48,774 nt of DNA from a virus (IMGVR_UViG_2909267149_000001), one strand, 5' to 3'; counted from the first letter of the stretch, positions 1-48,774 are shown. Numbers and translations are program-made. Notes: a model not told the origin generated them from the letters alone.

Positions 1-837
1 ATGCCGTCTCTACGTTCAGCTTACGTTTGTAATTTGTCGCCGGAGTTCCAGCCTCCAAAGCACCATACGCACAAGCTGCCGCTGGTGTTATCTGATGCTT
101 TACAGCGCATTAATGGTCGTGATCTTACGTGTGAGGTTGCGTTCTACGTTAATCAACCGTCAGAGCGGAAACGCCGGATAAACGAGCATCGTCGTCGGGC
201 GATTAATGCTGTGATTGCTGCGATTTTGCACCATGTAAACATCATTTCTAAGCGGGTTCTGGCCAGTGCTGAGGCGTTGGCTGATTTTTGCGGCCTGTCT
301 ACCGTATCCGAAGCTGGGAACAAGTCTATAACGCGCTGTACAAGGGCGTTGTCGCAACTGAAAGAGTTAGGTTTTATTGATTATGAACGTCGCTGGGATC
401 GGGTGAATAAACAGTATTGGCCAGCGAAAATCGAGATTCGTGATCAACTGCTGGAAACAGTTGGTATTACTGAACAAGCATGGAGACGTGCGGTTAGCCA
501 GAAACTTAATTACTTCAATGCGAAGAATAGCGAACGGCTTAAAAAAGCGATAACGGAGGCTGATTATAAGCGTATTGTTATTCAGGAGCAGATGGAGAAT
601 GTATGGCGTCAGAGGAAGACGGCCAGAGAGATAAAGGCAAAACAGAAAGCAGCGGAGAGAGCTGCGCGTCTTGTTCAGGAAAAGGGAGAGGCCGAACTTC
701 GCCATCAAATCACTAGAGAGGTTAGCCAGGAATTTGCTGATGGCATGTATCCTGGTGCTGACCTTGCATATTTACGCTCCCTCGTTGAGCAGCGTTATAA
801 CAGGCTAAGAAAGACCTGGAAATCACTCCAACATTAA
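1..837 (+). CDS. repA: Plasmid replication initiator, IncFII RepA1-like
   Basis: 278-aa basic protein recalled as resembling IncFII RepA1 in architecture; followed by DnaA box and AT-rich region; ORF starts at window base 1 so the true start may be upstream. Confidence 0.55.
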   Translation: MPSLRSAYVCNLSPEFQPPKHHTHKLPLVLSDALQRINGRDLTCEVAFYVNQPSERKRRINEHRRRAINAVIAAILHHVNIISKRVLASAEALADFCGLSTVSEAGNKSITRCTRALSQLKELGFIDYERRWDRVNKQYWPAKIEIRDQLLETVGITEQAWRRAVSQKLNYFNAKNSERLKKAITEADYKRIVIQEQMENVWRQRKTAREIKAKQKAAERAARLVQEKGEAELRHQITREVSQEFADGMYPGADLAYLRSLVEQRYNRLRKTWKSLQH

Positions 838-840
838 CCC

Positions 841-1110
841 ACCTGAATGATGAATCCGGTTTTACCGGAGGATTATCTACGTCGCAATAAAATATCTGTT
901 CAAAAAACAATCTAAATTAATTTTCTCTAAACCTGAACACAGCAAAAATATCGCCTTTACAGGCATCGGCTAATAAAGTTATCCACAGTTTTGATATGTA
1001 TATGCAAATGGTTTTTTATAATAGATGCACTAAACAAATAAATGCAAAATCACTTTCTTTTATTAAAACTTTCTTTATTTAACTTACGCAGGCTTTGCCT
1101 GTGAATATGT
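841..1110. promoter_or_regulatory. Candidate vegetative origin (oriR-like AT-rich region downstream of repA)
   Basis: AT-rich tract directly after repA stop containing a consensus DnaA box. Confidence 0.45.
979..987 (+). promoter_or_regulatory. DnaA box TTATCCACA
   Basis: Exact 9-mer match to DnaA box consensus. Confidence 0.6.
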
Positions 1111-1480
1111 TCGCCCTTGCAGCGAGCTAAAGCTCGCGCCGGTTCGAGTCGCTACGCTCAAATATACCTCCTCCGGCACTTGCCGGAGGCATGGAGCAGC
1201 CTGATCATCCTTTTCGAAACGGCGCGTTTCGAACTATACAAAATCAATTTATATAAGGCCGAAATAAGGCCTACGGCCGGGCTTTGCAGGAGGAAGGGGC
1301 GAGCCTTATCAATAAACGTCGATAAATACGCACACAGTAGCCATCAGAACGCGATAAAACGTAAGAAACATCATTTCCTATTAGACATAGAAAACTTGTC
1401 TTATACGCAATGTAGTAAATTTCTATTGCCACATAGGAAAAGATTTCCTACCATCGTAGATATAATAAATGGAGATGGTT

Positions 1481-1768
1481 ATGGATAAAGATACTGTTTT
1501 AAAAATGTTGAATCCGGCTTGTTTAAAAAAAGCGGATGAATGGGAATCTCCTACATGTGGAGAAGTTCGGGCAGTCATTGGCCTGACCGGAATGAGCGGC
1601 TCGCAGTTGGCCAAAAAACTTGGCTTAAAAGATAGTCGCAATGTTCGCAACTGGCAGATGTTAAAGGAGTCCACATCCAGATCCAGCATTCCGTATGCAG
1701 CCTGGGCGCTGCTGTGTTACTTCGCTGGGTTAGGGTTAATCTTCATTGATAACAAAACAGATGTTTGA
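1481..1768 (+). CDS. Hypothetical small protein, possible HTH
   Basis: ORF with GGAG 5 nt upstream of ATG at 1481; the track start at 1469 is an in-frame alternative. Confidence 0.4.
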   Translation: MDKDTVLKMLNPACLKKADEWESPTCGEVRAVIGLTGMSGSQLAKKLGLKDSRNVRNWQMLKESTSRSSIPYAAWALLCYFAGLGLIFIDNKTDV

Positions 1769-1791
1769 AACATGCAAATATGAGGTTTGTT

Positions 1792-2055
1792 ATGGAACTT
1801 GTACGCAAAACACGCAAAGAGTTCTTGGACCTGTATCGCATGGGAGCTTTCACTTGTGTTGTGGCTACCCAGGACGAAGTGACAAAAAGCTGGCGGCTTT
1901 TTGCTCTCAATAAAAAAGGGATTGCCGTTTTCATTGAAAAAGCCCGTGGTGGTATCCGCGAATGGGCGGGATTGAATTATGTGGCTGATTTTTGCGCAGC
2001 TATGGGGATTCGTCGCTGGGAAGTCCATATGCCAGGAGTAAAGTCACAAAAATAG
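1792..2055 (+). CDS. Hypothetical protein
   Basis: ORF; GAGG 6 nt upstream of ATG at 1792; the track start at 1765 is a TTG. Confidence 0.4.
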   Translation: MELVRKTRKEFLDLYRMGAFTCVVATQDEVTKSWRLFALNKKGIAVFIEKARGGIREWAGLNYVADFCAAMGIRRWEVHMPGVKSQK

Positions 2056-2299
2056 GGCTTTCGCGTCGAAAATGAGGCGAAACTGAAAACGAGATTTCAT
2101 TAACAAATAAGCAACATAAAAAACGGTGGAAAACGCCCAGGAAAACATGATCTTTTGAGCGGATTTTTTAGATCCGACAATGAACGGTGATCCGGTGGTG
2201 CCGATAACGTCCATTATGTTAAATAGCCCCGTTTTTCTTGAAATTATAAATCACAGGTTATATAGTTAGTGATATAAACTACAGGTTATAGGATTGAGC

Positions 2300-2647
2300 A
2301 TGTGGACGGTACTTTTTAGCCAGCGATTTGACGACTGGCTAAATGAGCAAGAAGACGCTCTTCAGGAAAAGGTTTTGGCTGATTTGAAAAAGCTACAGGT
2401 TTACGGACCTGAGTTACCCAGGCCATATGCCGATACCGTAAAAGGTTCTCGGTACAAAAATATGAAAGAGCTTCGCGTTCAGTTTTCTGGCCGTCCGATA
2501 AGAGCCTTTTATGCGTTCGATCCGATTCGCCGGGCCATCGTTCTTTGTGCAGGAGACAAAAGTAACGATAAGCGGTTTTATGAAAAACTGGTGCGTATAG
2601 CTGAGGATGAGTTTGCAGCACATCTGAACACACTGGAGAGCAAGTAA
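2300..2647 (+). CDS. higB: Type II toxin, HigB-2/RelE-family (addiction-module killer protein)
   Basis: ~115-aa protein recalled as matching Gp49/HigB-2-like toxins; AGGA RBS before ATG 2300; 1-nt overlap with downstream XRE-HTH gene (toxin-first order typical of HigBA). Confidence 0.6.
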   Translation: MWTVLFSQRFDDWLNEQEDALQEKVLADLKKLQVYGPELPRPYADTVKGSRYKNMKELRVQFSGRPIRAFYAFDPIRRAIVLCAGDKSNDKRFYEKLVRIAEDEFAAHLNTLESK

Positions 2648-2946
2648 TGAGAACATTAGATGAGGCGATTGCCAGCCGTTCACCGGAAAGCCAGGCGCGA
2701 ATTAAAGAAATGGCAGATGAGATGATTCTTGAGGTCGGCTTGCAGATGATGCGTGAAGAACTCCAGTTATCACAAAAACAGGTTGCTGAGGCGATGGGTA
2801 TAAGCCAGCCAGCAGTAACAAAGCTGGAGCAGCGCGGAAATGATTTAAAGCTGGCGACATTAAAGCGTTACGTTGAAGCTATGGGAGGCAAATTAAGCCT
2901 GGATGTTGAGCTTCCCACAGGAAAACGAATAGCGTTTAACATCTGA
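2647..2946 (+). CDS. higA: Antitoxin HigA-like, XRE-family HTH
   Basis: 99-aa protein with HTH signature (LSQKQVAEAMGISQPAVTKLE); ATGA overlap with the toxin. Confidence 0.65.
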   Translation: MRTLDEAIASRSPESQARIKEMADEMILEVGLQMMREELQLSQKQVAEAMGISQPAVTKLEQRGNDLKLATLKRYVEAMGGKLSLDVELPTGKRIAFNI

Positions 2947-2960
2947 TCAGAACGAATGAT

Positions 2961-2988
2961 AAGCCCCTGTTGCAAAGGGGCTTTTTTG
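2961..2988 (+). terminator. Rho-independent terminator after higA
   Basis: GC hairpin agcccctgttgcaaaggggct followed by a T6 run. Confidence 0.6.
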
Positions 2989-2992
2989 TGCT

Positions 2993-3109
2993 CATAGAAT
3001 TATATAATTATATATTTATATAAAAAGTGCTTTACAGGTGGGAAAAAAATTCCTAAGGTTATACCCGAAACCGAGCGATACCCGCCCTGGTTAAACCGGA
3101 GATAACCCG
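2993..3109 (+). promoter_or_regulatory. Repeated promoter-leader element, copy A (AT-rich palindrome, TTTACA-17bp-TAAGGT, conserved 5' UTR, GGAG SD)
   Basis: Near-identical to copies at 12450-12575 and 19477-19593; ends at the ATG of the 3110 ORF. Confidence 0.6.
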
Positions 3110-3490
3110 ATGAGCATGATTAAAATCCGCAAAAACGCTTTCCTTAAAATTCAAACTATCCTGGCTGGTTCTGTTGGCGTGATTTGCCGTTCTTCCTCAA
3201 GCCGCATCGATGACTGCTACGATGATGAGTATCGTGTGTCCTCATGCGATGAGGCTTTAACCTGGCTGAAGGAGAATCAGGAACGTGCCCAGGTATATCT
3301 GGAAACAGAGAACGGCAATCAGATGCTGCGTATTAGCGGTCGTTATGGATTTGAAACTACATTCATGGCCTATTTTAATCAGGCTTACTTTGACAAGGAG
3401 TTGGCCTGGTACACTGATCGCATGAGCAAAAGCGAGCCAGCCCCGATTACACCGCCGAACAATAAACCATTTTTATTCCTCGTTAAGTAA
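3110..3490 (+). CDS. Hypothetical protein driven by repeated promoter element
   Basis: 126-aa ORF immediately after the conserved leader and SD. Confidence 0.5.
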   Translation: MSMIKIRKNAFLKIQTILAGSVGVICRSSSSRIDDCYDDEYRVSSCDEALTWLKENQERAQVYLETENGNQMLRISGRYGFETTFMAYFNQAYFDKELAWYTDRMSKSEPAPITPPNNKPFLFLVK

Positions 3491-3498
3491 ACACAATG

Positions 3499-3526
3499 CG
3501 CAAAGTGTCATTTTGACACTTTGCGA
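3499..3526. terminator. Perfect 12-bp stem hairpin (cgcaaagtgtca-tttt-tgacactttgcg), candidate terminator or protein-binding palindrome
   Basis: Perfect inverted repeat directly downstream of the 3110 ORF; no T-run. Confidence 0.4.
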
Positions 3527-3593
3527 GTGTTAATATAGGGGGCGTTTGAAGATAGATAACTTATTGTGGGGCAAGCCGATAACTTACATTGGG

Positions 3594-4019
3594 TTAGCTT
3601 GAATAGGTAGTTGGTATTTTGAGCATATGGCCAATCTCTTCGAGATGCTTAGATGGATTCTCCCCAGTCTTACCTTCATGTATTGACGCTATATAGTTCA
3701 AATTTTGAGCTGCCCCAAGAATCTCGGTGGCTGATGGAACAAGACGAAAGCCGATATGTAACTTTTTGATATAGAAAGGTAAAGTGGAATATTTCGCCAT
3801 TAACTGTGCTGCGGAATCTTTTAGATCATGAATGATTTCTGGCTTTAAGTTCGAGCCAGGATTCACTATTTTTGCTTGGTTACATAATAACAGATTGGAT
3901 ATTTTCCCTAGTTGTTCCCTGAATGAAATGTAAGGCTCAATAGCTCCTTTGACGATGAGTTGGCCTAGAACAAAAACACTTACACCAGTGACCACGGTGA
4001 CAAAAGCAGATGAACTCAT
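3594..4019 (-). CDS. Hypothetical protein with hydrophobic N-terminus
   Basis: 141-aa ORF divergent from an HTH gene; N-terminal hydrophobic stretch. Confidence 0.4.
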   Translation of the reverse strand: MSSSAFVTVVTGVSVFVLGQLIVKGAIEPYISFREQLGKISNLLLCNQAKIVNPGSNLKPEIIHDLKDSAAQLMAKYSTLPFYIKKLHIGFRLVPSATEILGAAQNLNYIASIHEGKTGENPSKHLEEIGHMLKIPTTYSS

Positions 4020-4120
4020 TTTTTACCTAAAGCCTAAAGATTGGATTGTTAATACATCTTATTTTGTCGTGAGTGGCTATGTCTAATTTATTGAATATCT
4101 AGGGAAAGGTAGAGGATGTA

Positions 4121-4393
4121 ATGACGGGTTACGAATTGAAATTATGGCGTCGTGGGATGAACTGGACGCAGGAGCGAGCAGCCGAAGAGTTTGGGATATC
4201 GTTGGCTACATATAAGCGATATGAGAAGGGGGAGCCGCCGAGGGTCATTGAGATGGCCATTCGCGTTCTGTCGTTTGACGATATGGTTAAGGATCTTTCA
4301 CACCTTGATAAAGATGCGATTCTGTTAAGGCTGCAAACCCTTGTATGGGAAAAGGTTAAAGTGTCGGCAGAATTGGAACAAGGGATCAAATGA
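4121..4393 (+). CDS. XRE-family HTH transcriptional regulator
   Basis: 90-aa protein with HTH signature (WTQERAAEEFGISLATYKRYE). Confidence 0.55.
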   Translation: MTGYELKLWRRGMNWTQERAAEEFGISLATYKRYEKGEPPRVIEMAIRVLSFDDMVKDLSHLDKDAILLRLQTLVWEKVKVSAELEQGIK

Positions 4394-4442
4394 TCCTTTA
4401 CGGATCGTTTTATGGTGGTGTAATGTAAGCGCCAGAAAGACA

Positions 4443-4469
4443 AAAACCGCCTTGCCGGGCGGTTTTCAG
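4443..4469 (+). terminator. Rho-independent terminator
   Basis: Hairpin accgccttgccgggcggt followed by tttt. Confidence 0.5.
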
Positions 4470-5179
4470 TCTGAAATTTAAATCTTGCTTGGTAGGCTGG
4501 ATTTAAAAAGACACCTCTTGATTGGGGCGGCTTTCTTGCGTCTAAAGATAATCAAATCTTTTTGCGCCTGCAACCCCTTTTTTACTGGTGCCCATTTCAG
4601 ACTCACGCTCGCGTCGTTGTCTTTGCCACTTCGTTGGGTTCGGTGTTTTTGGGCGAAGTGGCGCGCGGGTATGCGTACAAGGGGAAAGTGTGCTGACGCA
4701 AGCCAGGAACAGCGATCTAAACTAAGTCGAGTCTGAGAAAGGCAGGAGTGCGACAACTCGCCTGTGCTCTATGAGCAGAAGAAGGTATATCAGACGACCA
4801 ATGGCATGATTGTGGGCCACAGGGCGCACACGGCGGCGAAGCATTGGAAACGATGTGGAGCTATCTGGTGGCATGAGTTCCGGTACTCGATCTCGAGCTT
4901 TTTTTGATGCTTTTGAGAAGGGGCCGGAACTCCGGTAAAGGGCACCCTGTATGGGGGGAGGGGGGGTTGTGTCTGAAGGGTGGTTATCGGTTATGGTGGA
5001 ATTATGATGCGTAGAAAAGCGAGTTTGCTGCAAGCTATTGGGTCCATTATTTCTTTGTTTCCGGCAGTTGATCATTTTCGTCATATGGCGACACGTTCGA
5101 GTATGGGCTTGGCGCGTGACGCTGACGCTATTCGAAAGGATTTTCAGAAAGTCTCTGGTGTTGATAAGAGAGAAAAGAG

Positions 5180-5199
5180 TAAGGGGCCGTAGCCCCTTG
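5180..5199 (-). terminator. Terminator hairpin downstream of antirepressor gene
   Basis: aaggggccgtagcccctt hairpin just 3' of the minus-strand stop at 5203. Confidence 0.4.
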
Positions 5200-5202
5200 T
5201 AG

Positions 5203-6345
5203 TTATGGTCTGCTTTTCTGTGCCAGCTTATCAGCACATGTTTTTATCAGATCCTGTAGTGTCCTGGCTGGCAGGTTTGCATCCAGTACGCTGAGTATGC
5301 TGTTGTGATCAGCCTGGTCGACTACTTTGCCTGTCGGTGGTAGTAGCTTGAGCTGAGGATTCAGGTTTTCGTCAAAGCTGATAAGTGCTCTGGCGTTTCT
5401 GAGCAGATCAAGAAGTAAGGCTGATATCACATTTTCCTGAGTCATTGCTGGCAGACTTAGCGCCGCTTTGGTTTTCCCTGTTGCCTTGTCAAACTCCTTG
5501 ATTAGTTCCTTCCTGTAGTTCGGTTCCGTTAATAGCCGATTATGCTCTGTTGCCGCGCGGATAATCGTTTTTTCCTGGTACAGTCGTTTAGCCAGATCGC
5601 GCTCGTACTGTGTTTTTAACACGCTGCTGATAGCGTTAAAGGCTTCAATGTAGGCCAGCTTGATATCCTTCACGCCTGGACCGTCGATACTTTCCATGAG
5701 CAAGGTAAATCCGTCTTTTGTCATGCGATAGATTGTTATTTCGCGGTCGCTTCCTTCCAACGGTCGTTGCTCTTTAAAGAAATGACGCGCCGCAGCTGTG
5801 CGAGGAATGCGTAACGCATCGATGGCCATAACGATGGAATTGTTTGTGGTGCTGAATGCCTGGGCAACATCGGCTGAGGTTGTGAGTGGCTCGTTGTTGC
5901 ACACTTTAATGTAAAACATTGGTTTGGCGTTGAGCGTATCGACAACCTCACGAGCATTGTTTGGTGAGACGGTTACGGTCGCGGCCGTTTGTGCGTTCTG
6001 GTTGAAATAGCAGTCTTCCAGTTTTTCGAACACATCCCAAGCCTGATCGGTTTCGAGCATTTTGGCGTGACGGGCTGCTCCGTGTTCGGTCCAGAGAATT
6101 AGGGAGCGGGCATTTTTACCAACTAACCCGATTGTTTCAGGTCTGTTCTTGAACTCGCGTAATTCGTTTTTTTCAATTTTAAAGTAATGCTTTCCGGCTA
6201 TGAATCGCGTCGTGTTGTTCAGAAAGTTATCAGAAATGTTTTTGATTTTTGTTCCGTATAACTGCGCCAGAAGTTCACTAGTGATAACGGGGATCTGGTT
6301 ATGCAGGATAGGCTGTAGGGTGTTAACGGTCGGAAGCGTTTTCAT
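5203..6345 (-). CDS. Phage antirepressor (Ant-like; KilA-N/ORF6N-like N-terminus and Rha-like regulatory domain)
   Basis: 380-aa protein with motifs recalled from antirepressor families; GGAGG RBS; translationally coupled to an upstream small ORF. Confidence 0.55.
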   Translation of the reverse strand: MKTLPTVNTLQPILHNQIPVITSELLAQLYGTKIKNISDNFLNNTTRFIAGKHYFKIEKNELREFKNRPETIGLVGKNARSLILWTEHGAARHAKMLETDQAWDVFEKLEDCYFNQNAQTAATVTVSPNNAREVVDTLNAKPMFYIKVCNNEPLTTSADVAQAFSTTNNSIVMAIDALRIPRTAAARHFFKEQRPLEGSDREITIYRMTKDGFTLLMESIDGPGVKDIKLAYIEAFNAISSVLKTQYERDLAKRLYQEKTIIRAATEHNRLLTEPNYRKELIKEFDKATGKTKAALSLPAMTQENVISALLLDLLRNARALISFDENLNPQLKLLPPTGKVVDQADHNSILSVLDANLPARTLQDLIKTCADKLAQKSRP

Positions 6346-6533: not shown

Positions 6534-7418
6534 GGTGATAGTTCCCTTAAAGGTTAAGGATACTCACCACCGTCTGGTTCCAATCATTGGGTGGTGAGAC
6601 GTACAGGGTTGGAACTACCGGTCACCATGGAATCCGGCGAGTCTTACGACTCCCCCGCACGCCCCACCATAATTTGGGTGTAGCAGTGCTTTACGCATAA
6701 AAAAACCGCTAACGCGGTATGCGCCATGATGATTATCGGGGTTCCAATCCCGGCCGTAGATTTTGCTACGGCTCGGAAAGTGTCCACCAATGGCGCATTC
6801 ATGTCAATACGGCGGGATTTTAACAGAGACAACCACATAGCGTGGGTTTATTGGTAGGCAGAAACAAAAAAACCGCCCTATTGAGGACGGTTCTTTCGTG
6901 CTGATCGGATTCGCGGTCCTTTCAGCATTACGTTGTTGTATAAACAACCACGCAAGCACAAGCAGCAAGTTAATTTTACCCAAAAGGTAATAATAGTCCA
7001 CTATTATGCTTCAAAAAATTGTGGTTCTTGTTGTGCCTGCAAACTCACAGATTGTGGGTAGGTTACTGATTTTGTGAAAATAAACGAGTTTTTTCGTTTA
7101 ATTTCTTTCCTATTACTAATCTTAAAATAATCGTAAAATACCTGTGGACCTTCCCGCCGATTCGCACCCGGGCACCGACTTTAGGGGAGGATTCTCCGTT
7201 GCCGTACATGCAAGCACAAGCAGCCGTGCTTGCTCTCGCGTTGTTTTCGTCGGTGGGGATGCCGTGAAACGGCCTGTAAGGGCCATACAATGAAAAAATA
7301 CTGTATGTGTATTTTTATCGTTGTTACTGGAGCTTTGTTTACGCCACATGGGGAGGGTTGGAAGATTACTGATAACGCTCTGAATGTGACGATAAACATT
7401 AGCAGCAAGTAGCGATTA

Positions 7419-7442
7419 GGCCCCTTCGGGGGCCTTTTTTAT
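7419..7442 (+). terminator. Rho-independent terminator on plus strand
   Basis: aggccccttcgggggcct hairpin followed by T6. Confidence 0.6.
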
Positions 7443-12449: not shown

Positions 12450-12575
12450 ACATCGAAAATCTATAAATATATAATTATAGATTTATATAAAAAGTGCTTT
12501 ACAGGTGGGAAAAAATTTCCTAAGGTTATACCCGAAACCGAGCGATACCCGCCCTGGTTAAACCGGAGAAATCTG
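12450..12575 (+). promoter_or_regulatory. Repeated promoter-leader element, copy B
   Basis: Near-identical to copies A and C; ends at the ATG of the 12576 ORF. Confidence 0.6.
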
Positions 12576-13643
12576 ATGAATAAACAAGAAATTATTTCTG
12601 ACTGGATCAACAACCCTAACAGCCTGTTAAGCACTGATACTGGCTACCTATTACGCCATGTTAATGGTCGTATGGTCAAAAGCGATGAGCACGAAACCTT
12701 TTTCTTTGTTGAAGACGATGGGCGCATCTATGAGGATGGTTACTCTTATGAAGCCCAAACTGGTTGTATCCCTGCGGAGCTGGTGGACGTAACAGAAGAT
12801 CTGCGCAAAGCATGGCTTGAACAGCAGCAGCGCGGAGATGATTACGTAAACACCTATCAGGAACGCCAGAACGCGCGTCTTGCCCGATATATTGCTCGTG
12901 CAGAAAAAGCCAGAAAAGAAGGTGCGGTAGCGCATAAGCGAGCGCATGACCTGTTGGATGTGATCCCGTTAGGCCAGCCGATTTTAGTTGACCATTATAG
13001 CGCGAAAGGCCATCGCCGCCGTTTGTCTAAAGCTGATGCGTTATTAAGAAAAGCGTTTGTTGAATGCGAAAGTAAAGCATCACACTACGAGAGCAAAGCC
13101 GCAGGTGTTGGTCGTAATGGAATTTCGTCTGATGATCCTGATGCGCTATTTAAGTTGCTTCGTAAGCTGCAAGGCTGCATGAAGTCACACGTCAAAATGA
13201 AGGCCGCAAATAAGGCCATTCGCAAATACAAAAAAGACCAATTACAGCAGCTTTCTGCATTAATCGATCTCAGGTTTACAGAAAGCGAAGCCAAAGAGTT
13301 ACTGGCCGGAGATTTCTGTGGGCGCATCGGATTCCCTTCATACGCACTGAGCAACAATAACGCCGAAATCAAACGACTACAGAGCCGTATTAAGGAGCTT
13401 GAATCGGTCAAGTCTGTAACAGGAGCACAGCGCGAAGAATACGACGGCTTTTCTATGGAGATAGATCCAGAGGATAACCGCATCCTGTTTTATTTCCCTG
13501 GCAAACCAGAGGCAAACATTCGTTCGCTGCTTAAATCACGCGCCTTTAAGTGGAGTCCAACCCGTAATGCATGGGTTCGCAAGATTACTCCAAACGCCCT
13601 GGCTGATGCCCGATATCTAAAAGAATCGCTATTGAAAGCCTGA
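12576..13643 (+). CDS. Hypothetical 355-aa protein (first gene behind promoter-leader copy B)
   Basis: Long ORF with coiled-coil-like K/E-rich central region. Confidence 0.5.
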   Translation: MNKQEIISDWINNPNSLLSTDTGYLLRHVNGRMVKSDEHETFFFVEDDGRIYEDGYSYEAQTGCIPAELVDVTEDLRKAWLEQQQRGDDYVNTYQERQNARLARYIARAEKARKEGAVAHKRAHDLLDVIPLGQPILVDHYSAKGHRRRLSKADALLRKAFVECESKASHYESKAAGVGRNGISSDDPDALFKLLRKLQGCMKSHVKMKAANKAIRKYKKDQLQQLSALIDLRFTESEAKELLAGDFCGRIGFPSYALSNNNAEIKRLQSRIKELESVKSVTGAQREEYDGFSMEIDPEDNRILFYFPGKPEANIRSLLKSRAFKWSPTRNAWVRKITPNALADARYLKESLLKA

Positions 13644-18509: not shown

Positions 18510-18585
18510 GGCCCCTTAGCTCAGTGGTTAGAGCAGGCGACTCATAATCGCACGGTCATCGGTTCAAATCCGGTAGGGGCCACCA
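18510..18585 (+). tRNA. tRNA with anticodon CAU (tRNA-Ile2-like or tRNA-Met), 76 nt with encoded CCA
   Basis: Cloverleaf: acceptor GGCCCCT/AGGGGCC, D-arm AGCTCAGTGGTTAGAGC, anticodon loop CTCATAA, T-arm GGTTCAAATCC; close to E. coli ileX from memory. Confidence 0.85.
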
Positions 18586-18893: not shown

Positions 18894-19481
18894 ATGGAGG
18901 CAATTGCATTGTTTAATCTGATTTATGCAGATCCCCCCTGGGAATACAAAGACAAGTGTAAGGATGGGAATCGTGGAGCTGGTTTTAAGTATCCAACGAT
19001 GAAAGCTGAGGAGATTGCTCGTATTCCTGTCTGGCAGCTTGCTAATCCTGAATCGTGTTTGTTGGCCATGTGGTGGGTTCCGACTCAGCCAGAAGAAGCG
19101 TTGCTGGTGGTGAAAGCATGGGGATTCAGGCTGATGACCATGAAGGGCTTCACATGGAACAAATGTGGTAGCCGACAGCCAGATAAGCTGGTGATGGGGA
19201 TGGGGCATATGACTCGTGCGAACAGTGAAGATTGCTTGTTTGCGGTAAAAGGCAAACTGCCGACTCGCCTTGATGCGGGGATCATTCAGTCGTTTACATC
19301 GCCTCGTCTGGAACATTCACGGAAGCCTGATGTGGTTCGTGACAAGCTGGTAAGACTGTTAGGTGATGTTCCTCGTATTGAGCTGTTTGCTCGCGGTGAT
19401 TTACCTGATGGCTGGCATGGCTGGGGCAACCAGTGCAACGGAGGTATCCAGTTGCATGATGCTCTCTGGCAAGTGTCATAG
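18894..19481 (+). CDS. DNA N6-adenine methyltransferase, MT-A70 family
   Basis: Catalytic DPPW motif (YADPPWEY) near the N-terminus. Confidence 0.75.
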   Translation: MEAIALFNLIYADPPWEYKDKCKDGNRGAGFKYPTMKAEEIARIPVWQLANPESCLLAMWWVPTQPEEALLVVKAWGFRLMTMKGFTWNKCGSRQPDKLVMGMGHMTRANSEDCLFAVKGKLPTRLDAGIIQSFTSPRLEHSRKPDVVRDKLVRLLGDVPRIELFARGDLPDGWHGWGNQCNGGIQLHDALWQVS

Positions 19482-19593
19482 AATTATATAATTATAGATT
19501 TATATAAAAAGTGCTTTACAGGTGGGAAAAAATTTCCTAAGGTTATAACCGAAACCGAGCGATACCCGCCCTGGTTAAACCGGAGATAACCCG
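19477..19593 (+). promoter_or_regulatory. Repeated promoter-leader element, copy C
   Basis: Near-identical to copies A and B; begins at the MTase stop codon and ends at the ATG of the 19594 ORF. Confidence 0.6.
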
Positions 19594-19863
19594 ATGAAAG
19601 TACAAGACCGTGAAGTAGTAAAAAACCTCCTGCAATACCTGACCTCAAAAAACCTGACTGGCAGCGTTGAGTTCCGTGAAGCGTTAAAACATTTCAACGT
19701 CACTACGGTTTATCGTTGGGAAAACAAACATTCTGAAAGACCGTATGTGGTGGATGTTTTTGCGCCTGATATTGAGTGCGGTTTTGAGCGCCATTCATTC
19801 AAAAAGAAACATTCCGCTGATGTTTTTTGTGAGGTTGTATGTGCGGCAGGAGATGATGAGTGA
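19594..19863 (+). CDS. Hypothetical protein
   Basis: 89-aa ORF directly behind promoter-leader copy C. Confidence 0.45.
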   Translation: MKVQDREVVKNLLQYLTSKNLTGSVEFREALKHFNVTTVYRWENKHSERPYVVDVFAPDIECGFERHSFKKKHSADVFCEVVCAAGDDE

Positions 19864-20799: not shown

Positions 20800-20960
20800 A
20801 TGGTGTTGGCATTTTTCTGATGGTTGTGGCCGTGTGTTTTTGTATCTCGCTGGTGGTTATTGCTGGTGTCCTGTGGCGCATCTTAGTGGCGCAGAGAGCT
20901 TTTCGGCGTAAGCGGGAGCAATTGCGGTCAGGGTGCGTTTCATTCAAGTCAATGAGATAG
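20796..20960 (+). CDS. Small membrane protein (54 aa, below the ORF-track cut-off)
   Basis: ATG at 20796 overlapping the upstream stop; MNGVGIFLMVVAVCFCISLVVIAGVLW hydrophobic helix then basic tail. Confidence 0.3.
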   Translation: MNGVGIFLMVVAVCFCISLVVIAGVLWRILVAQRAFRRKREQLRSGCVSFKSMR

Positions 20961-20976
20961 ATGTAGGGTTATTTAT

Positions 20977-21690
20977 ATGATGCATTTAAAAAATATCAGT
21001 GCGCCGCTTATTGATCCCCGCGGCAAACATCCAGATGTGCTACCGCTTTTTACTGAAGACGGAAGAAATTGGTATGAGGAGCAGAAGAAATTTCAGCCTC
21101 ACACTTTAAAGATGATGTATGACAATAACGGCATTATCCGCAGTGTTTCGAAAGATGTATCGTTGCTTTGCCCGGATGGGATGAGTGTTATTGAGTTACC
21201 TGATACCGATGAGTATCGAAAAGTAGATAACACAGGTGATTGGCTCGTCAAAGATGTTCAAATTGTGAAGCGTGAAGGTCCAGAGCAGCGAGAAAACTCA
21301 CCGATATCTATTGGTGCAGAGTCTGTTCCGTTTAAGTTTGAATTATCCCAACTGGTAACAATGCGTATCAGTGACGAATGGGGAGAAGTTCAAGCCCGTG
21401 CTCAGTATGCAAATGGCGAAAACCAGTATCTGATTCACTATCAGGCGGCTGATGGCCGTGCTACTACAGAGTGGTTCGGTGAGTCGATGCTGATTGCGAT
21501 GGAGGATAAACGTCATCCTGGCTGTCCTGTTTTTGCCTGTATTGATCTGCCAGAAGGCGCGGTACTTGAAGACGACAAAGAAGAATGGTCGCCTGATGGC
21601 GAACTTGTCATTACCGGAATCGTGGATGGTAAGCCGAGATACTCTCGCATTGAGGTAAATAACGGCCACATCTGTTTGATACCAGAGTAA
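20977..21690 (+). CDS. Tail-fibre-assembly-chaperone-like protein (third paralog, extended C-terminus)
   Basis: N-terminus MMHLKNI...NWYEEQKKFQP...LKMMYD matches the two chaperones at 45707 and 46796. Confidence 0.5.
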   Translation: MMHLKNISAPLIDPRGKHPDVLPLFTEDGRNWYEEQKKFQPHTLKMMYDNNGIIRSVSKDVSLLCPDGMSVIELPDTDEYRKVDNTGDWLVKDVQIVKREGPEQRENSPISIGAESVPFKFELSQLVTMRISDEWGEVQARAQYANGENQYLIHYQAADGRATTEWFGESMLIAMEDKRHPGCPVFACIDLPEGAVLEDDKEEWSPDGELVITGIVDGKPRYSRIEVNNGHICLIPE

Positions 21691-21924
21691 CGCATTACAG
21701 CAGCTCTTGTGCTTATCAGGGGCTGCGATAATGCGCAAACCAAAGCTGCCTCATTAACTCCAGCTCATTGTGGAGTTAATGCTGGTGGCTTTTTTATTAC
21801 TGGAAGGTGGGCGACCGCCGTCAGTTGCGACCTGACGACAGTCATTCATACCCACAGGGTGCCGTGGATACAAACCGAGGCCCACTTGCTTGCACAAGCG
21901 AGGGGATTTTAGCGGATAAACGGC

Positions 21925-43634: not shown

Positions 43635-45704
43635 GTGAGTAAATTATTATTTACGATGACTGACGCCGGGCGTCAGGAGCTGGTTAATGCCAACAAAACA
43701 GGAACAAATAAAGTTGAGATTGTTTCTGTTGGTTTAGGTAGTAGATATTATGTCACGTCAACTTCACAAACAAATATAACAAACGAAATAAAACGACTTA
43801 CCACAATAGGTGGCAAAGTTGTTTCCCCTGATACAATTCATGTAACGGCGAAGGATGATAGTAAAGATGAGTATGTTGTCCATACAATAGGATTGTATAC
43901 AAATAAGGGAACGTTGTTTGCTGTATACTCGCAAGAACAAGCAATAATAAATAAAGCATCATCTACTATTGCTTTAATATCAAGTGACATAGCAATCAAG
44001 ACTCTTGATACTAAAAATATTACATTTGGTGATATTGAGTTTATTAATCCTCCCGCAACCGAAACTGTTGTTGGGGTTGCAAGATTTGCCAATGAACAAG
44101 AAATTGATGACGGTACAGATGATTCCCTTGCTGTTTCAGCAAAGCGGCTTAAGCAAGCCATTGTGAAACATGAACAATCACGTAATCATCCTGATGCAAC
44201 TTTAACCTCAAAAGGCTTTGTTCAACTTAGCAGCGCCACCAATAGCTCGTCTGAAACGCTTGCTGCGACGCCTAAGGCTGTTAAGGCAGCATATGACCTG
44301 GCTAATGGCAAATACACCGCACAGGACGCTACCACAGCGCGAAAAGGGATTGTTCAGCTCAGTAGTGCCACCAACAGCACGTCTGAAACGCTAGCAGCAA
44401 CACCAAAGGCTGTTAAGGCAGCGTATGATCTTGCGGCCGGAAAGGCTCCGTCCAATCACACGCATTCGTGGGAGCAGATAACAAATGTGCCTGTAGCTTC
44501 ACTGACTGTAAGGGGAATAACTCAGCTCAGTAGTTCCACCAACAGCACGTCTGAAACACTGGCCGCGACATCGAAAGCGGTCAAGGCGGTAATGGATGAA
44601 ACGAACAAGAAAGCGCCCTTAAACAGTCCTGCGTTGACCGGAACGCCAACAACGCCAACTGCGCGACAGGGAACGAATAATACCCAAATCGCAAGCACGG
44701 CTTTCGTTATGGCTGCGATCGCTGCCCTCGTGGACTCGTCACCTGACGCACTGAATACGCTGAACGAGTTAGCGGCGGCGCTGGGAAACGACCCGAATTT
44801 TGCGACCACCATGACTAACGCGCTTGCGGGTAAGCAACCGAAAGATGCCACCCTGACGGCGCTGGCCGGGCTTGCTACTGCGGCAGACAAGTTTCCGTAT
44901 TTTACGGGGAATGATGTCGCCAGCCTGGCACCCCTGACAAAAGTCGGGCGGGATATTCTTGCGAAATCGACCGTTGCTGCCGTTATCGAATACCTCGGTT
45001 TACGAGAACTCGGCACAAGCGGGGAGAAAATACCGTTACTCAGTACAGCGAATACCTGGACTAATAGACAAACATTCAGCGGTGGCCTTTCTGGGGAACT
45101 GTCCGGCAATGCCGCTACTGCAACAAAGCTGAAAACAGCACGAAAAATTGCTGGAGTTGGTTTTGATGGTTCTAGCGATATTTCAATTAGTGCCAAAAAT
45201 GTCAATGCATTTGCACTCCGACAAACAGGTAATACTGTTAATGGTGATACATCCGTTGGATGGAATTGGGATAGTGGTGCATATAACGCCCTGATTGGTG
45301 GTGCATCTGCATTAATTCTTCACTTTAATATAAATGCTGGTAGCTGTCCTGCCGTACAATTCCGTGTGAATTATAAAAATGGTGGCATTTCCTACAGGTC
45401 GGCTCGTGATGGTTATGGGTTTGAATTAGGTTGGTCAGATTTCTATACCACGACACGAAAACCTTCAGCGGGAGATGTTGGTGCATATACGCAGGCAGAA
45501 TGTAACTCAAGGTTTATTACAGGTATTCGCCTTGGCGGTCTGTCATCTGTTCAGACATGGAATGGTCCCGGCTGGTCTGACAGGTCAGGTTATGTCGTTA
45601 CGGGTTCAGTTAACGGAAACCGTGATGAATTAATTGATACAACTCAGGCAAGGCCAATTCAGTATTGCATTAATGGGACGTGGTATAACGCGGGGAGTAT
45701 TTAA
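43635..45704 (+). CDS. Tail fibre protein (constant N-terminal part plus currently expressed variable C-terminus Sv)
   Basis: 689 aa; three internal ~30-aa repeats; crossover site inside the ORF; C-terminus YCINGTWYNAGSI parallels the inverted alternative. Confidence 0.8.
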   Translation: MSKLLFTMTDAGRQELVNANKTGTNKVEIVSVGLGSRYYVTSTSQTNITNEIKRLTTIGGKVVSPDTIHVTAKDDSKDEYVVHTIGLYTNKGTLFAVYSQEQAIINKASSTIALISSDIAIKTLDTKNITFGDIEFINPPATETVVGVARFANEQEIDDGTDDSLAVSAKRLKQAIVKHEQSRNHPDATLTSKGFVQLSSATNSSSETLAATPKAVKAAYDLANGKYTAQDATTARKGIVQLSSATNSTSETLAATPKAVKAAYDLAAGKAPSNHTHSWEQITNVPVASLTVRGITQLSSSTNSTSETLAATSKAVKAVMDETNKKAPLNSPALTGTPTTPTARQGTNNTQIASTAFVMAAIAALVDSSPDALNTLNELAAALGNDPNFATTMTNALAGKQPKDATLTALAGLATAADKFPYFTGNDVASLAPLTKVGRDILAKSTVAAVIEYLGLRELGTSGEKIPLLSTANTWTNRQTFSGGLSGELSGNAATATKLKTARKIAGVGFDGSSDISISAKNVNAFALRQTGNTVNGDTSVGWNWDSGAYNALIGGASALILHFNINAGSCPAVQFRVNYKNGGISYRSARDGYGFELGWSDFYTTTRKPSAGDVGAYTQAECNSRFITGIRLGGLSSVQTWNGPGWSDRSGYVVTGSVNGNRDELIDTTQARPIQYCINGTWYNAGSI
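44214..44600 (+). repeat. Three ~90-bp direct repeats inside the tail fibre gene
   Basis: Repeated coding units LSSATNS(S/T)SETLAAT(P/S)KAVKA starting near 44214, 44346 and 44513. Confidence 0.7.
44983..45008. promoter_or_regulatory. Inversion crossover site (gix/cix-like), left
   Basis: ttatcgaatacctcggtttacgagaa; inverted partner at 47803-47828 shares the core cctcggtttac. Confidence 0.65.
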
Positions 45705-45706
45705 CG

Positions 45707-46240
45707 ATGATGCACTTAAAAAACATTACTGCTGGCAACCCTAAAACAAAAGAGCAATACCAGCTAACAAAGCAATTTAACATCAAATGGCTTTATTCAG
45801 ATGATGGAAAAAACTGGTATGAGGAACAAAAGAATTTCCAGCCAGACACTTTGAAAATGGTCTATGACCATAACGGCGTTATTATTTGTATTGAAAAGGA
45901 TGTTTCAGCAATTAATCCGGAAGGCGCAAGCGTCGTTGAATTACCTGATATTACAGCAAATCGCCGTGCTGACATTTCGGGTAGATGGATGTTCAAAGAT
46001 GGCGTAGTGGTAAAGCGAACTTATACCGAGGAAGAGCAGAGGCAGCAGGCGGAAAATGAAAAGCAAAGCCTGCTACAGCTCGTCAGGGATAAAACCCAGC
46101 TATGGGACTCACAGCTACGGCTGGGCATCATTTCCGACGAGAATAAACAAAAATTAACCGAGTGGATGCTCTATGCGCAGAAAGTCGAATCTACAGACAC
46201 CTCCAGCCTGCCAGTAACATTTCCCGAACAACCTGAATGA
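45707..46240 (+). CDS. Tail fibre assembly chaperone (U-like)
   Basis: 177-aa protein directly after the fibre gene; paralogous N-terminus MMHLKNI. Confidence 0.7.
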   Translation: MMHLKNITAGNPKTKEQYQLTKQFNIKWLYSDDGKNWYEEQKNFQPDTLKMVYDHNGVIICIEKDVSAINPEGASVVELPDITANRRADISGRWMFKDGVVVKRTYTEEEQRQQAENEKQSLLQLVRDKTQLWDSQLRLGIISDENKQKLTEWMLYAQKVESTDTSSLPVTFPEQPE

Positions 46241-46268
46241 GACAAGGCCCGATAGCGGGCCTTAATTT

Positions 46269-46796
46269 TTATTCAGGCTTTTGTGGCCATTCAGGATTTG
46301 CCGTATCCACACGGCTGACCAGAACACTGTAGCGTTCCCATGACTCCAGTCGTGCGCGCTCCTCATCCGTCGCCATATTCAGCCTGACAGCGCGTTCCAG
46401 TGGCTGAATAACGCTTTCTGCTTCGGAAAGTAACGCGGCCTTTTGTGATTCGGCCTGTTGTTGCTGTTCGTCAGCCGTATAAATCCGTTTAACCACAGCT
46501 CCGTCCTTAAACATCCACTTCCCTGAATCATCGGCACGACGATTGGCTGTTATATCGGGAACCTCAACGACGCTAAAGCCTTCAGGGTTAAGCGTAGAGG
46601 CATCCTTGGTGATAGCGACAATAATATTATTTTCATCGTAAACAATCTTTATTGTGTCTGGCTGAAAGTTTTTCACTTCCTCATACCAGTTTTTTCCGTC
46701 CTCAGAGTAAAGCCAGATAACTCCGTGTTTCTTTGTTAATTCGTACTGCTCAAGTGTTTTAGCGTTACCCGCTTTAATGTTCTTTAAGTGCATCAT
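46269..46796 (-). CDS. Alternative tail fibre assembly chaperone (U'-like)
   Basis: 175-aa paralog on the opposite strand inside the invertible segment. Confidence 0.7.
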
Positions 46797-46797
46797 A

Positions 46798-47883
46798 TTA
46801 AACGCTCGCTACATTATACCAGGTGCCATTTATATACTTTTGAACGGGTCTGTAATAAACGCCCGCTATATTATCGGCAGAGTTGGACCCTGTATCCTGA
46901 ACATTAATACCAGACAATACATGACCTGACGGGCACTGGAAATTCCATGTTTGCCAGTTGTTCACTCCATAATATTGCTGTGAACCAAGTCGAACATCTT
47001 TCACATATCTGGAATCAAAATTGCCATAGTTGCCGGGAATAACTTGCGCACCGCAAAGCCAGTTTCCGTTATTATCCATGTACGCCTGACCATCGGTGCC
47101 ATTGGTTGTCCTTGAATTATTAATCATGTAGATGCCAAATTGCTTGTTCCCCAGTCCACCTATCATGAACTTGCGGTCGGCGTGATTCTGGCGAAGCAAC
47201 GCCTGAGCGCTATCAGTGTTAACTATATTTTTCCCAAAGATAGCGTTGTTATCGCGCATCTGAATCCACATACCATTACTGCTGTTAATAGCAAAACGGT
47301 CTGAAAGTGTCTCCCCTGAAACATTAAGACCACGCCCCATCGAAACAGCGCCAGTAGCGTTATTAATCCATAATGGCCTTAATCCGTTATAAGTCCCCAT
47401 GTTGTCACCGGAGTTTGTCAACATGAAGTATGTATTTGAACCATCATTACGAATAAAGAATCCGTAATTACCATAAGCAATACGTAGGCCGTTTGCTGAT
47501 TTTGATATGACTTCGCCATTTACAATGGCATTGACAAGAACATACAAAGCATCCCATTTAAGATTCATCAGGTCTTTTGTTGTGGTACTTTGTTTGCTTC
47601 TCCATTTGAAATATTCATTGCCGTTGTCGCCTGTCTCAAACCACATGTATGAATCAGTGTCACCATCGGCATCATTTTTAAATCCAATCTTCACCCAGTC
47701 AGTATTTCGAATCCAGGCAAGGATTGAGTCATTTTCAAAAGTAAGCCCACCGGACAAAGTATCGCCATTTTTTTGCACGGCGTTACCAGCCCTGTTTACC
47801 GTTTCCTGTAAACCGAGGTTTTTGCGAATTGCCTCTGTGTCGTCTGAACGATATTTTTTCCCGCTTTTAGCAACAATCGCGGT
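46798..47883 (-). CDS. Alternative tail-fibre variable C-terminal segment (Sv'), lacking its own start
   Basis: Minus-strand frame is open from 47883 through the crossover site (by my hand translation); ends [12 protein letters not shown], parallel to the plus-strand fibre C-terminus. Confidence 0.65.
47803..47828. promoter_or_regulatory. Inversion crossover site (gix/cix-like), right
   Basis: ttcctgtaaaccgaggtttttgcgaa, close to the Mu gix sequence from memory. Confidence 0.65.
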
Positions 47884-47892
47884 TTAGAAAGT

Positions 47893-48447
47893 ATGCAATA
47901 TGGTTATGCGAGGGTGTCAACTTTTGACCAGAATTTGGAATTACAATTGGAGGCGCTCAGGAGTTCAGGATGTGACCGGATTTTTGAAGATAAAATATCC
48001 GGTGCTAAATCAAAACGACCAGGACTTGATAAGCTACTGAAGGTGTTACGGCCGGGCGATACGGTTATTGTCTGGAAGCTGGACCGAATGGGGCGTTCTC
48101 TGATTCATCTTGTTGATTTACTAAACTATTTTTTATCAAACAACATTGAGTTTATTTCGATTACGGAAGGGATAAAAATTAGCACTTCAATTGGCCGCTT
48201 TGCCTACACGATGCTGAGTGCAGTCGCAGAGATGGAGCGGGAAAATATGATTGAAAGAACGCGTGCAGGATTGGCGGTGGCAAGGGCTAACGGCAGGATA
48301 GGAGGACGCCGCTCAAAATTGGCACCAGAGCAATGGGAACAGATCGGAAGGCTTATTGCGAATGGTGTTTCACGTAAGCGGATAGCGATTATCTTCGATG
48401 TTACCTTATCCACGCTTTACCGCAGGTTTCCGGCTGGGAATCATTGA
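47893..48447 (+). CDS. Serine DNA invertase, Gin/Cin/Hin/Pin family
   Basis: N-terminal YARVSTFDQ with catalytic Ser; C-terminal HTH; strong resemblance to Gin from memory; adjacent to the right crossover site. Confidence 0.9.
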   Translation: MQYGYARVSTFDQNLELQLEALRSSGCDRIFEDKISGAKSKRPGLDKLLKVLRPGDTVIVWKLDRMGRSLIHLVDLLNYFLSNNIEFISITEGIKISTSIGRFAYTMLSAVAEMERENMIERTRAGLAVARANGRIGGRRSKLAPEQWEQIGRLIANGVSRKRIAIIFDVTLSTLYRRFPAGNH

Positions 48448-48635
48448 CTGGAGTTAGGCCAGTAGTATGATGCTCGCAAAACGAGATCCAATTTAGATCC
48501 TTTTACTGGTGGATTATCGTTCGATCAGTGAGAGACTTCGTGCATGACCGAAAGTGTTGTGGTAGAGTTCTCTTAAAACCACGTAACGTGGTTATGATTG
48601 TGGGTGTCTGGTTGAAAAGTGACCAGATATGGAAA

Positions 48636-48665
48636 CAAAAAGCCCGCAGATAAATCTGCGGGCTT
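48636..48665 (-). terminator. Rho-independent terminator for a leftward transcript entering from beyond the window
   Basis: agcccgcagataaatctgcgggct hairpin followed by a T-run on the minus strand. Confidence 0.5.
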
Positions 48666-48774
48666 CTTGCGACATCCACGGAAAGGAAAACCAACAACTA
48701 ACCATGGGCGCCTCGACAACTCCCATTATACGTTGGTTTTCCGTGGACGCAAGAGCGAACATATGGATAGACCA

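Follow-up and report, generated by a model that had tools for sequence, protein, structure and literature searches.

An intact Mu/P1-type tail-fibre inversion switch carried by an IncFII-RepA phage-plasmid

The invertible tail-fibre segments closest to the locus described here are the G segment of phage Mu and the C segment of phage P1, which are served by the DNA invertases Gin and Cin, respectively. In Mu, a constant fibre part is followed by a tip and its chaperone, by an inverted chaperone and tip, and by the invertase gene, which lies just past the right crossover site and on the same strand. Mu in the G(+) orientation infects E. coli K-12, while G(-) particles infect E. coli C, Citrobacter, Erwinia, S. 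sonnei and others (PMC4406740). P1 carries its C segment as a plasmid prophage, with cin on the opposite flank and cixL at the 3′ end of cin. Pin (e14), Min (p15B) and Hin (Salmonella), which we set beside the present locus by their descriptions, are further members of the Din family, with 26-bp sites of the same type. What Hin switches is a promoter and not the C-terminus of a coding sequence, and Min works with six sites, as opposed to the two found here. The 184-aa length of Pin equals that of the invertase analysed below.

We analysed a stretch of viral DNA of 48,774 nucleotides (the window) and found that it contains a tail-fibre switch of this known and ordinary kind, an intact Mu/P1-type flip-flop segment on a phage-plasmid with an IncFII-type RepA. 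We regard it, with a probability of about 0.9, as a functional switch of phage host range that works by site-specific inversion of the Gin/Cin type (Din family); the switch is real and almost certainly active. Gene order, as well as the position and strand of the invertase gene, is that of Mu, and the DNA between 45245 and 47822 is 91–93% identical to the invertible segments of Mu, D108 and P1. Mu is a transposable phage, whereas the window represents an IncFII-RepA phage-plasmid with a P2/Mu-type contractile tail and resembles P1 in being a plasmid prophage; the carrier is a phage of ~48.8 kb that lives as a plasmid. The placement of cin in P1 is unlike that of the invertase gene here. The inverted repeats measure 34 bp in Mu and 0.6 kb in the 4.2-kb segment of P1, compared with a 12-nt exact core in the 2.82-kb segment of the window. 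Coordinates of all features are collected in Table 1.

Table 1. Features of the invertible tail-fibre locus (positions in the window)
Feature	Coordinates	Strand	Remarks
Constant N-terminal part of the tail-fibre gene (Sc)	43635..44996	+	aa 1–453 and split Leu454 codon; outside the invertible segment
Left crossover site, gixL/cixR-like	44983..45008		site-family match
Expressed variable C-terminus (Sv)	44997..45704	+	236 aa from Leu454; Mu S′-like tip, G(-)-type
Expressed tail-fibre assembly protein/chaperone, Mu U′-like	45707..46240	+	177 aa; Pfam Caudo_TAP, E 1.3e-36
GC-rich hairpin and T-run between the convergent cassettes	46244..46263		terminator-like; 8 pairs, 6 GC
Alternative chaperone, Mu U-like, presumably silent	46269..46796	-	175 aa; Pfam Caudo_TAP, E 1.5e-37
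Alternative variable C-terminus (S′v), Mu S-like, G(+)-type, presumably silent	46798..47814	-	339 aa from the shared Leu codon
Right crossover site, gixR-like	47803..47828		site-family match
In-frame open stretch upstream of S′v	47829..47883	-	22 aa; no start codon of its own; outside the segment
Din-family serine DNA invertase	47893..48447	+	184 aa; intact; outside the segment
Putative recombinational enhancer (sis)	47914..47976	+	in the invertase 5′ coding region; positional homology

The fibre gene is split by the left site, and two convergent cassettes, each consisting of an in-frame C-terminus and a chaperone, lie between the sites. In the sequenced orientation the tail-fibre ORF extends from 43635 to 45704 and encodes 689 aa. 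Its constant part contains three Phage_fiber_2 repeats (Pfam PF03406, three stretches, E 1.5e-58) and is P1-like, with 61% identity to the constant part of P1 S over 346 aa, while the Sc of Mu is unrelated to it. The first ~70 aa of Sv are also P1-like and not Mu-like; residues 2–65 are 80% identical to the N-terminus of P1 Sv/Sv′. The remainder (aa 72–236) is 89% identical to Mu S′ 164–328 and to P1 Sv′, and Sv matches the Mu S/S′ chimera of PDB 8ju3_A with an E-value of 2.9e-97. The initial annotation had proposed a comparison of the two variable domains with fibres of known receptor specificity; this comparison identified one S′/U′-like and one S/U-like tip of Mu, in DNA that is ~92% identical to Mu G and P1 C. 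S′v is 87% identical to Mu S aa 170–504 and 85% to P1 S 656–987, aligns with PDB 5yvq_A (E 2.9e-193) and also contains a Pfam Gp34_trimer domain. Of the chaperones, the one in the expressed cassette is 97% identical to Mu U′ and 95% to P1 U′, and the alternative one is 93% identical to both Mu U and P1 U and matches PDB 5yvq_B (E 5e-105). The variable parts are thus homologous to S/S′ and U/U′, with 87–97% protein identity. Solved Mu structures exist for both tips and one chaperone. An NCBIfam search with the fibre and chaperone proteins returned no matches. The hairpin between the two cassettes looks like a terminator by its match to the consensus.

As shown by translation, the second cassette comprises two long intact ORFs free of stops and frameshifts, and the minus-strand frame runs uninterrupted from 47883 to the stop at 46798. 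The open stretch that extends this frame beyond the right site is probably a relic of the end of a constant region; Mu has a similar overhang, since Mup52 runs past the G boundary. It had been predicted that inversion would fuse the constant region to the minus-strand C-terminus at 46798–47883 and bring the alternative chaperone into an expression position. Our in-silico inversion at the TC/GA core agreed with both predictions: Sc (aa 1–453) is joined in frame to S′v to give an unbroken 792-aa fibre, and the alternative chaperone follows directly behind it.

The left crossover site reads TTATCGAATACC TC GGTTTACGAGAA, with the central dinucleotide at 44995–44996, and the right site reads TTCCTGTAAACC GA GGTTTTTGCGAA, with the central dinucleotide at 47815–47816. 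These are two imperfectly palindromic 26-bp sites of gix type, inverted to each other, with the same TC/GA centre and the same codon phase. The inverted sites and their common core, which the initial annotation had located at these positions, are therefore real and match the gix family, and translation also gave the peptides it had named, as EYLGLRE on the plus strand and KNLGLQE on the minus strand. Both sites lie within open frames, and their central dinucleotides fall in the same codon, CTC (Leu). The exact inverted core common to the two sites is 12 nt long (ACCTCGGTTTAC); outside it the sites are non-identical, the inner half-sites reading ACGAGAA and ACAGGAA, and a repeat finder reported 20 nt at 85%. 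As about one inverted repeat of 12 nt is expected by chance in 5.8 kb, the repeat is not significant by itself. At the level of sequence, the weight of the site call lies in the match to the known site family and not in the repeat. The right site has at most 3 mismatches to Mu gixR over 26 nt, a match that none of 100 shuffles gave (0/100), and the left site at most 4 to Mu gixL and at most 3 to P1 cixR, with ~3e-5 matches at such mismatch levels expected per window by our own arithmetic. Outer half-sites carry 2–3 mismatches to the Mu consensus. The central dinucleotide TC/GA is that of Mu, the 26-bp sites being 3–4 nt from gixL/gixR; in P1 it is TT/AA, although cixR is only 3 nt from the left site.

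Exact occurrences of AAACCGAGGT in the 48.8 kb are confined to the two crossover sites. The whole window was searched for extra sites with the decamer (no mismatch), the 26-mer (at most 3 mismatches) and AAACCNNGGTTT (at most 2), which yielded only the two known sites and chance-level matches. With only two full sites in the window, a system with several alternative inversions, such as Min or a shufflon, was ruled out. We also rejected an inverted-repeat match at 48565–48585 as a third gix site, its half-sites being 9 bp apart and not 2; the palindrome at 48565–48591 (AACCACGT-A-ACGTGGTT) contains one good half-site.

The invertase has the architecture of a small serine recombinase, with a Pfam Resolvase domain (E 3.4e-44) followed by HTH_7 (E 2.9e-13), and aligns without gaps to residues 2–181 of Gin (PDB 3uj3/4m6f; E 1.6e-61). 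The catalytic residues Y5, R7, S9, D64, R65 and R68 are the same in this protein, Gin and Cin. Its identity to Gin and Cin is 54–56% (by position 54% to Gin and 55% to Cin, with 55–56% for Cin in the system comparison), and Gin is longer (193 vs. 184 aa). The Gin-family invertase that had been called at 47893 is thus intact and correctly placed at the family level, but it is not close to Gin itself. It is 99.5% identical to the "hin" of Yersinia phage vB_YpM_44. An NCBIfam search with the invertase gave sub-threshold matches only. When 47829–47892 was scanned for a sigma-70 consensus promoter of the invertase gene, none scored above threshold; a weak TTGCCT-17-TATTTT can be seen by eye between the right site and the ATG. 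The enhancer candidate within the gene consists of two 15-mers of the form G-N13-C, 47914–47928 (GTGTCAACTTTTGAC) and 47962–47976 (GTTCAGGATGTGACC), with centres 48 bp apart. It coincides in position with the enhancer annotated in P1 cin (nt 19–90), a conservation that coding constraint alone could explain. As the centre of the second candidate Fis site is GC-rich, we assign the enhancer by positional homology only, and Fis may bind at 47914–47976.

Taken together, these features suggest the following mechanism. With 453 constant codons of the fibre gene outside the 2.82-kb segment and a variable C-terminus with its matching assembly chaperone in each of the two convergent cassettes, the invertase would bind the two inverted 26-bp sites, cut at the central TC/GA through Ser9, and rotate and religate the strands to invert the segment, probably with host Fis bound to the enhancer inside the 5′ end of its own gene. 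Inversion would exchange the cassette joined to the constant part. The sequenced orientation, which is G(-)-like and opposite to that of the Mu reference, would produce the 689-aa fibre with a Mu S′-like tip and a U′-like chaperone, and the flipped, G(+)-like orientation the 792-aa fibre with a Mu S-like tip and a U-like chaperone. Such a swap of cassettes would lead a lysogen population to release two types of virions with different LPS-receptor specificities. The close homology of the segment to Mu G and P1 C means that the receptor class of either tip has already been characterised. The actual host ranges may differ between the orientations by the precedent of Mu. We infer the silence of the unfused cassette and the rate of inversion.

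Both orientations occur in nature, with breakpoints in the core. The flipped right junction made in silico is present in one piece (1200/1200 nt) in plasmid CP099184.1, whose flanks are 99.9–100% identical to the window. The orientation of the alignment to this plasmid switches inside 44992–45003 and inside 47808–47822, and it contains both recombinant junctions. CP099184.1 differs from the window by more than the inversion: the inner segment is 96.6% identical and carries an IS3-family insertion. Between CP158444.1 and CP117232.1, two assemblies of the 48,488-bp sister plasmid of E. coli ATCC 25922, a ~3.0-kb inversion is essentially the sole difference. The outer half-sites of the ATCC 25922 plasmid are identical to those of the window, and its inverted repeats are 73–76 bp long. 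In the ATCC pair, two SNPs within these repeats, at positions 11 and 53, accompany the segment when it inverts; the exchange is therefore limited to the 10-bp ACCTCGGTTT that surrounds the TC core, a location that indicates site-specific and not homologous recombination. In at least 12 plasmid records the S′-type end adjoins the invertase, and other records show the opposite arrangement. The documented cases of inversion at the core dinucleotide are thus those of close relatives (CP099184.1 and the ATCC 25922 isomers). A single orientation combined with a dead invertase had been named beforehand as speaking against the switch; what we found is an intact catalytic serine and near-identical public plasmids in both orientations. 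No ~48-kb plasmid of PLSDB contains the native right junction of the window in intact form; the exact cassette combination of the window is therefore absent from that collection, consistent with cassette mosaicism.

The switch could be complete yet frozen in this copy, with negligible inversion and the silent cassette as evolutionary baggage. Diverged sites, weakness of the enhancer or poor expression of the invertase would bring about such a state. The non-identity of the two sites outside the 12-nt core and the failure of the promoter scan fit this reading, and there is a precedent in SfMu, which has a 1-bp change adjoining the crossover, in which inversion apparently does not occur and for which a frozen switch was proposed (PMC4406740). 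It is hard to reconcile with a second cassette whose two long ORFs are intact and with an intact invertase. Moreover, the ATCC 25922 plasmid demonstrably inverts with these outer half-sites and with an invertase gene that is 98% identical, and the left inner half-site of the window has been recombined onto the right flank in CP099184.1, so we consider a frozen switch quite unlikely. Even less credible is that the inversions among relatives reflect RecA-dependent homologous recombination between inverted repeats, without the invertase. The ATCC 25922 repeats are long enough for rare events of this kind, but the exact homology in the window, 12 nt, is far below RecA requirements, the ATCC exchange fell at the gix core, within the initial 10 bp, and not at random along 73 bp, and the CP099184.1 breakpoint lies inside the same 12 nt.

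The location of the invertase gene, directly upstream of the IncFII-type repA, raises the question of whether the serine recombinase acts mainly as a plasmid multimer resolvase or a regulator of the replication region, with fibre inversion as a side activity. The annotation of the sister plasmid lists no other recombinase, one ATCC 25922 record of 94 kb contains both orientations, and the palindrome at 48565–48591 is half-site-like. However, the protein can be aligned over its full length to Gin, an invertase rather than a resolvase; the window contains neither a res-like array nor a second full crossover site for such a role, and the 9-bp spacing of the 48565 element departs from the 2 bp of a gix site. 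Fis/enhancer-dependent invertases such as Gin and Hin also disfavour deletion between direct sites. A main role of this kind is accordingly extremely improbable. Marginally more plausible, and still very doubtful, is a second role of the invertase in plasmid maintenance, exerted through the same palindrome or through the gix sites in dimers, which the one copy per orientation in the 94-kb record would fit; if true, fibre switching would be coupled to plasmid copy or multimer state.

The fibre inversion switch is shared by a family of phage-plasmids. Both the 48,488-bp plasmid of ATCC 25922 and vB_YpM_44, a relative that was isolated as an infective phage, have the same backbone, outer half-sites and invertase (98–99.5%), and their switch is at the same place; for the ATCC plasmid, sequences of both orientations exist. 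Within the family the variable cassettes form a mosaic, ATCC 25922 having other tip variants and vB_YpM_44 tips that are only 41–49% identical to those of the window. A pSLy3/SSU5-type identity was rejected, those phage-plasmids belonging to the SSU5 supercommunity, and vB_YpM_HQ103 proved to be a different phage, a 32-kb member of Peduoviridae. Our literature search retrieved no published account of a switch in the ~48-kb phage-plasmid family and nothing relevant for ATCC 25922 together with phage-plasmid.

These results add nothing new to the mechanism, and their practical value is modest. A little-described ~48-kb phage-plasmid family of E. coli and Yersinia, of which one member resides in ATCC 25922, a widely used quality-control strain, has an active Mu-type switch, and plasmid assemblies will therefore differ in orientation. 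Automatic annotation calls one of the fibre ends a pseudogene, as PGAP does, and host-range prediction for such phages has two fibre tips to weigh. The G/C cassette itself is a module that moves between unrelated phage backbones, where it is found with different Din invertases.

We regard it as highly probable (about 0.9) that the fibre locus is an active Gin/Cin-type switch. V/W/J/I-type baseplate genes lie upstream of it (window ORFs and annotation of relatives), and a GC-rich hairpin with a T-run is located between the convergent cassettes (46244-46263). The alternative C-terminus and chaperone named in the initial annotation were both recovered on the minus strand, the former as an open frame ending in a stop. 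When the inversion was modelled in silico by flipping 44997-47814, the constant fibre part (Sc, aa 1-453) was joined to 339 aa in an uninterrupted 792-aa fibre, with a stop codon that overlaps the second chaperone's start. The anticipated in-frame fusion was thus reproduced, as was the move of the alternative chaperone into expression position.

Features of the invertible fibre locus, with Sv and S'v denoting the expressed and silent variable C-termini
Feature	Position	Strand	Length	Pfam or sequence	State	Closest known (protein identity)
Tail-fibre ORF	43635-45704	+	689 aa	Phage_fiber_2 repeats		
Left crossover site	44983-45008			TTATCGAATACC-TC-GGTTTACGAGAA		
Sv, C-terminal part			165 aa		expressed	Mu S' (89%)
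Chaperone ORF	45707-46240	+	177 aa	Caudo_TAP	expressed	Mu U' (97%)
Second chaperone ORF	46269-46796	-	175 aa	Caudo_TAP	silent	Mu U (93%)
Fibre fragment (S'v, whole variable part)	open from 47883 to stop at 46798	-		Gp34_trimer	silent	Mu S (87%)
Right crossover site	47803-47828			TTCCTGTAAACC-GA-GGTTTTTGCGAA		
Invertase ORF	47893-48447	+	184 aa	Resolvase + HTH_7		

The two crossover sites are inverted and have 12 nt exactly in common, or 20 nt at 85% (entry I3 of the repeat search). About one 12-nt inverted repeat is expected by chance in 5.8 kb; what carries the case is therefore likeness to known members of the site family. Over 26 positions the right site has 3 mismatches to Mu gixR, a match equalled in 0 of 100 shuffles, and the left site has 4 differences from Mu gixL and 3 from P1 cixR. 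By our own arithmetic, ~3e-5 26-mers matching this well are expected per window. Exact occurrences of AAACCGAGGT in the 48.8 kb are confined to the two sites. Both lie in open frames, as first proposed: the central dinucleotide of each falls, in the same phase, within the CTC (Leu) codon of an LGL(R/Q)E motif. Between the invertase gene and repA, the element at 48565-48591 has a single good gix-like half-site (TTCTCTTAAAACC) and, after it, a perfect palindrome, AACCACGT-A-ACGTGGTT. With half-sites 9 bp apart it was ruled out as a regular crossover site; it could be a replication-region operator. Downstream of the palindrome lies a hairpin (48636-48669).

Alignment of the invertase to Gin residues 2-181 (3uj3/4m6f, E ~1e-61) needs no gaps and shows Y5, R7, S9, D64, R65 and R68 to be conserved. 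Its earlier assignment to the Gin family holds to this extent, but it shares only 54-56% identity with Gin and Cin. An invertase at least 99% identical occurs, among sequenced phages, only in the vB_YpM_44 type, the next best reaching ~60%. The enzyme is a separate lineage of the Din family. Within the invertase gene, the stretch homologous to the annotated P1 cin enhancer (nt 19-90) has a pair of G-N13-C 15-mers centred 48 bp apart, the spacing of the Fis sites in Hin/Gin enhancers. This 5' stretch is a putative Fis-type enhancer.

Natural inversion was evident among relatives. The in-silico flipped right junction (reverse complement of Sv joined to the invertase flank) matched plasmid CP099184.1 at 1200/1200 nt in one piece. 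The flanks of this plasmid are 99.9-100% identical to the window, and the alignment changes orientation inside 44992-45003 and 47808-47822; with an inner segment 96.6% identical, it is not a pure isomer. Its Mu-S-type fibre end, joined to the constant part, carries an inserted IS3-family transposase (2992-4220 of CP099184.1), so the expressed fibre is predicted to be disrupted unless the segment flips back. The S'-type end adjoins the invertase in at least 12 PLSDB plasmids. For the 48,488-bp plasmid of E. coli ATCC 25922, assemblies CP158444.1 and CP117232.1 run collinear and match almost completely, apart from ~3.0 kb that is inverted, and further ATCC 25922 assemblies fall into both orientation classes. 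In NZ_CP032086.1 (ATCC 25922, 94,204 bp, ~2x unit length) the fibre segment is found once per orientation (~23.4-28.0 kb and 72.3-73.7 kb), which reflects a true dimer or else an artefact of assembling a mixed-orientation population. PGAP labels the unfused variable end a pseudogene ("incomplete, missing N-terminus"; 20839-21798 and 46517-47443 in the two 48,488-bp assemblies, L005 and L006), a systematic annotation artefact of such switches.

These plasmids also bear on other explanations. Homologous recombination, rather than the invertase, could lie behind the inversions, as the ATCC 25922 plasmid has inverted repeats of 73-76 bp with two differing positions. However, both SNPs travel with the segment between CP158444.1 and CP117232.1, so exchange occurred within the 10 bp ACCTCGGTTT, which contains the TC core; the outer half-sites are identical to the window's. 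Such a pattern marks site-specific recombination and speaks against exchange by RecA along the repeat, leaving this explanation very improbable. That the switch is structurally complete and frozen in the window's copy is slightly less remote, though still unlikely: the catalytic serine, S9, is intact, and both orientations occur in assemblies of near-identical relatives, whereas a substituted serine and a single orientation had been named as signs against a working switch. A recombinase serving primarily plasmid maintenance is equally as improbable as homologous recombination. The active Gin/Cin-type switch remains our preferred reading. The locus shows every defining feature that could be tested for Din inversion systems and for a G/C-type fibre switch, with the enhancer putative and the host-range change expected by analogy.

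At the DNA level, 45245-47822 shares 91-93% identity with the invertible segments of Mu, D108 and P1. The expressed tip and chaperone are Mu S'/U'-like and the silent ones Mu S/U-like, so the window is in the G(-)-like state. Structures have been solved for both tips and for one chaperone (5yvq chains A and B, 8ju3). In contrast, the constant part is not Mu-like but shares 61% identity with the constant region of P1 S, and Sv begins with ~65 aa that match the N-terminus of the P1 variable part at 80% identity, so the fibre is a mosaic. Mu G(+) particles infect E. coli K-12, and G(-) hosts are E. coli C, Citrobacter, Erwinia, Enterobacter, Serratia and S. sonnei (PMC4406740); by analogy, these specificities may carry over to this phage. 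The three Phage_fiber_2 repeats are also visible in the DNA of the constant part (44210-44602), as three imperfect direct repeats of 93 nt that are 65-83% identical, with spacings of 132 and 168 nt; analogous repeat elements are annotated in P1 S. A tail-fibre-assembly N-terminal domain is also encoded by a third gene (20977-21690, +; Caudo_TAP, E 2e-5), which lies 24 kb from the fibre locus amid ParB-like genes. Its product shares the MMHLKNI start and 47% identity over ~100 aa with the expressed chaperone, and its C-terminal half is unrelated.

Phage tail-fibre inversions are textbook cases. They have been catalogued systematically (PMC9881135), and our literature search found no paper on the switch in this phage-plasmid family. 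It is therefore a new instance of a known system, adding a further example with little surprise.

The window makes up one full circular replicon in which position 1 follows on from 48774 (window 1-5640 in CP099184.1). It starts inside repA, which spans the circle junction (1-837 and 48763-48774; IncFII_repA, Pfam, E 3e-44). Relatives are 46-52-kb non-mobilizable Escherichia plasmids and the infective Yersinia phage vB_YpM_44. The element is thus a phage-plasmid, and its tail is contractile. An intergenic cassette of ~115 nt occurs in three direct copies (93-98% identical), at 2992-3113, 12462-12589 and 19476-19607; the sister plasmid likewise has three. Each copy has a TTTACA...TAAGGT promoter-like pair and an AT-rich stretch resembling a palindrome, and ends with GGAGA-N8-ATG where a different gene begins; this looks like a common promoter/5'-UTR module for three operons. 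Rfam matches above the gathering score comprise C4 antisense RNA (6587-6674, -), isrK (6699-6772, -) and ryfA (7144-7440, +), adjoined by an ORF6N/Rha-domain antirepressor-like gene (5203-6345, -), which suggests a P1/P7-type C4-controlled immunity region. A tRNA gene lies at 18510-18582 (Rfam tRNA, 67 bits), annotated as tRNA-Ile in the sister plasmid.
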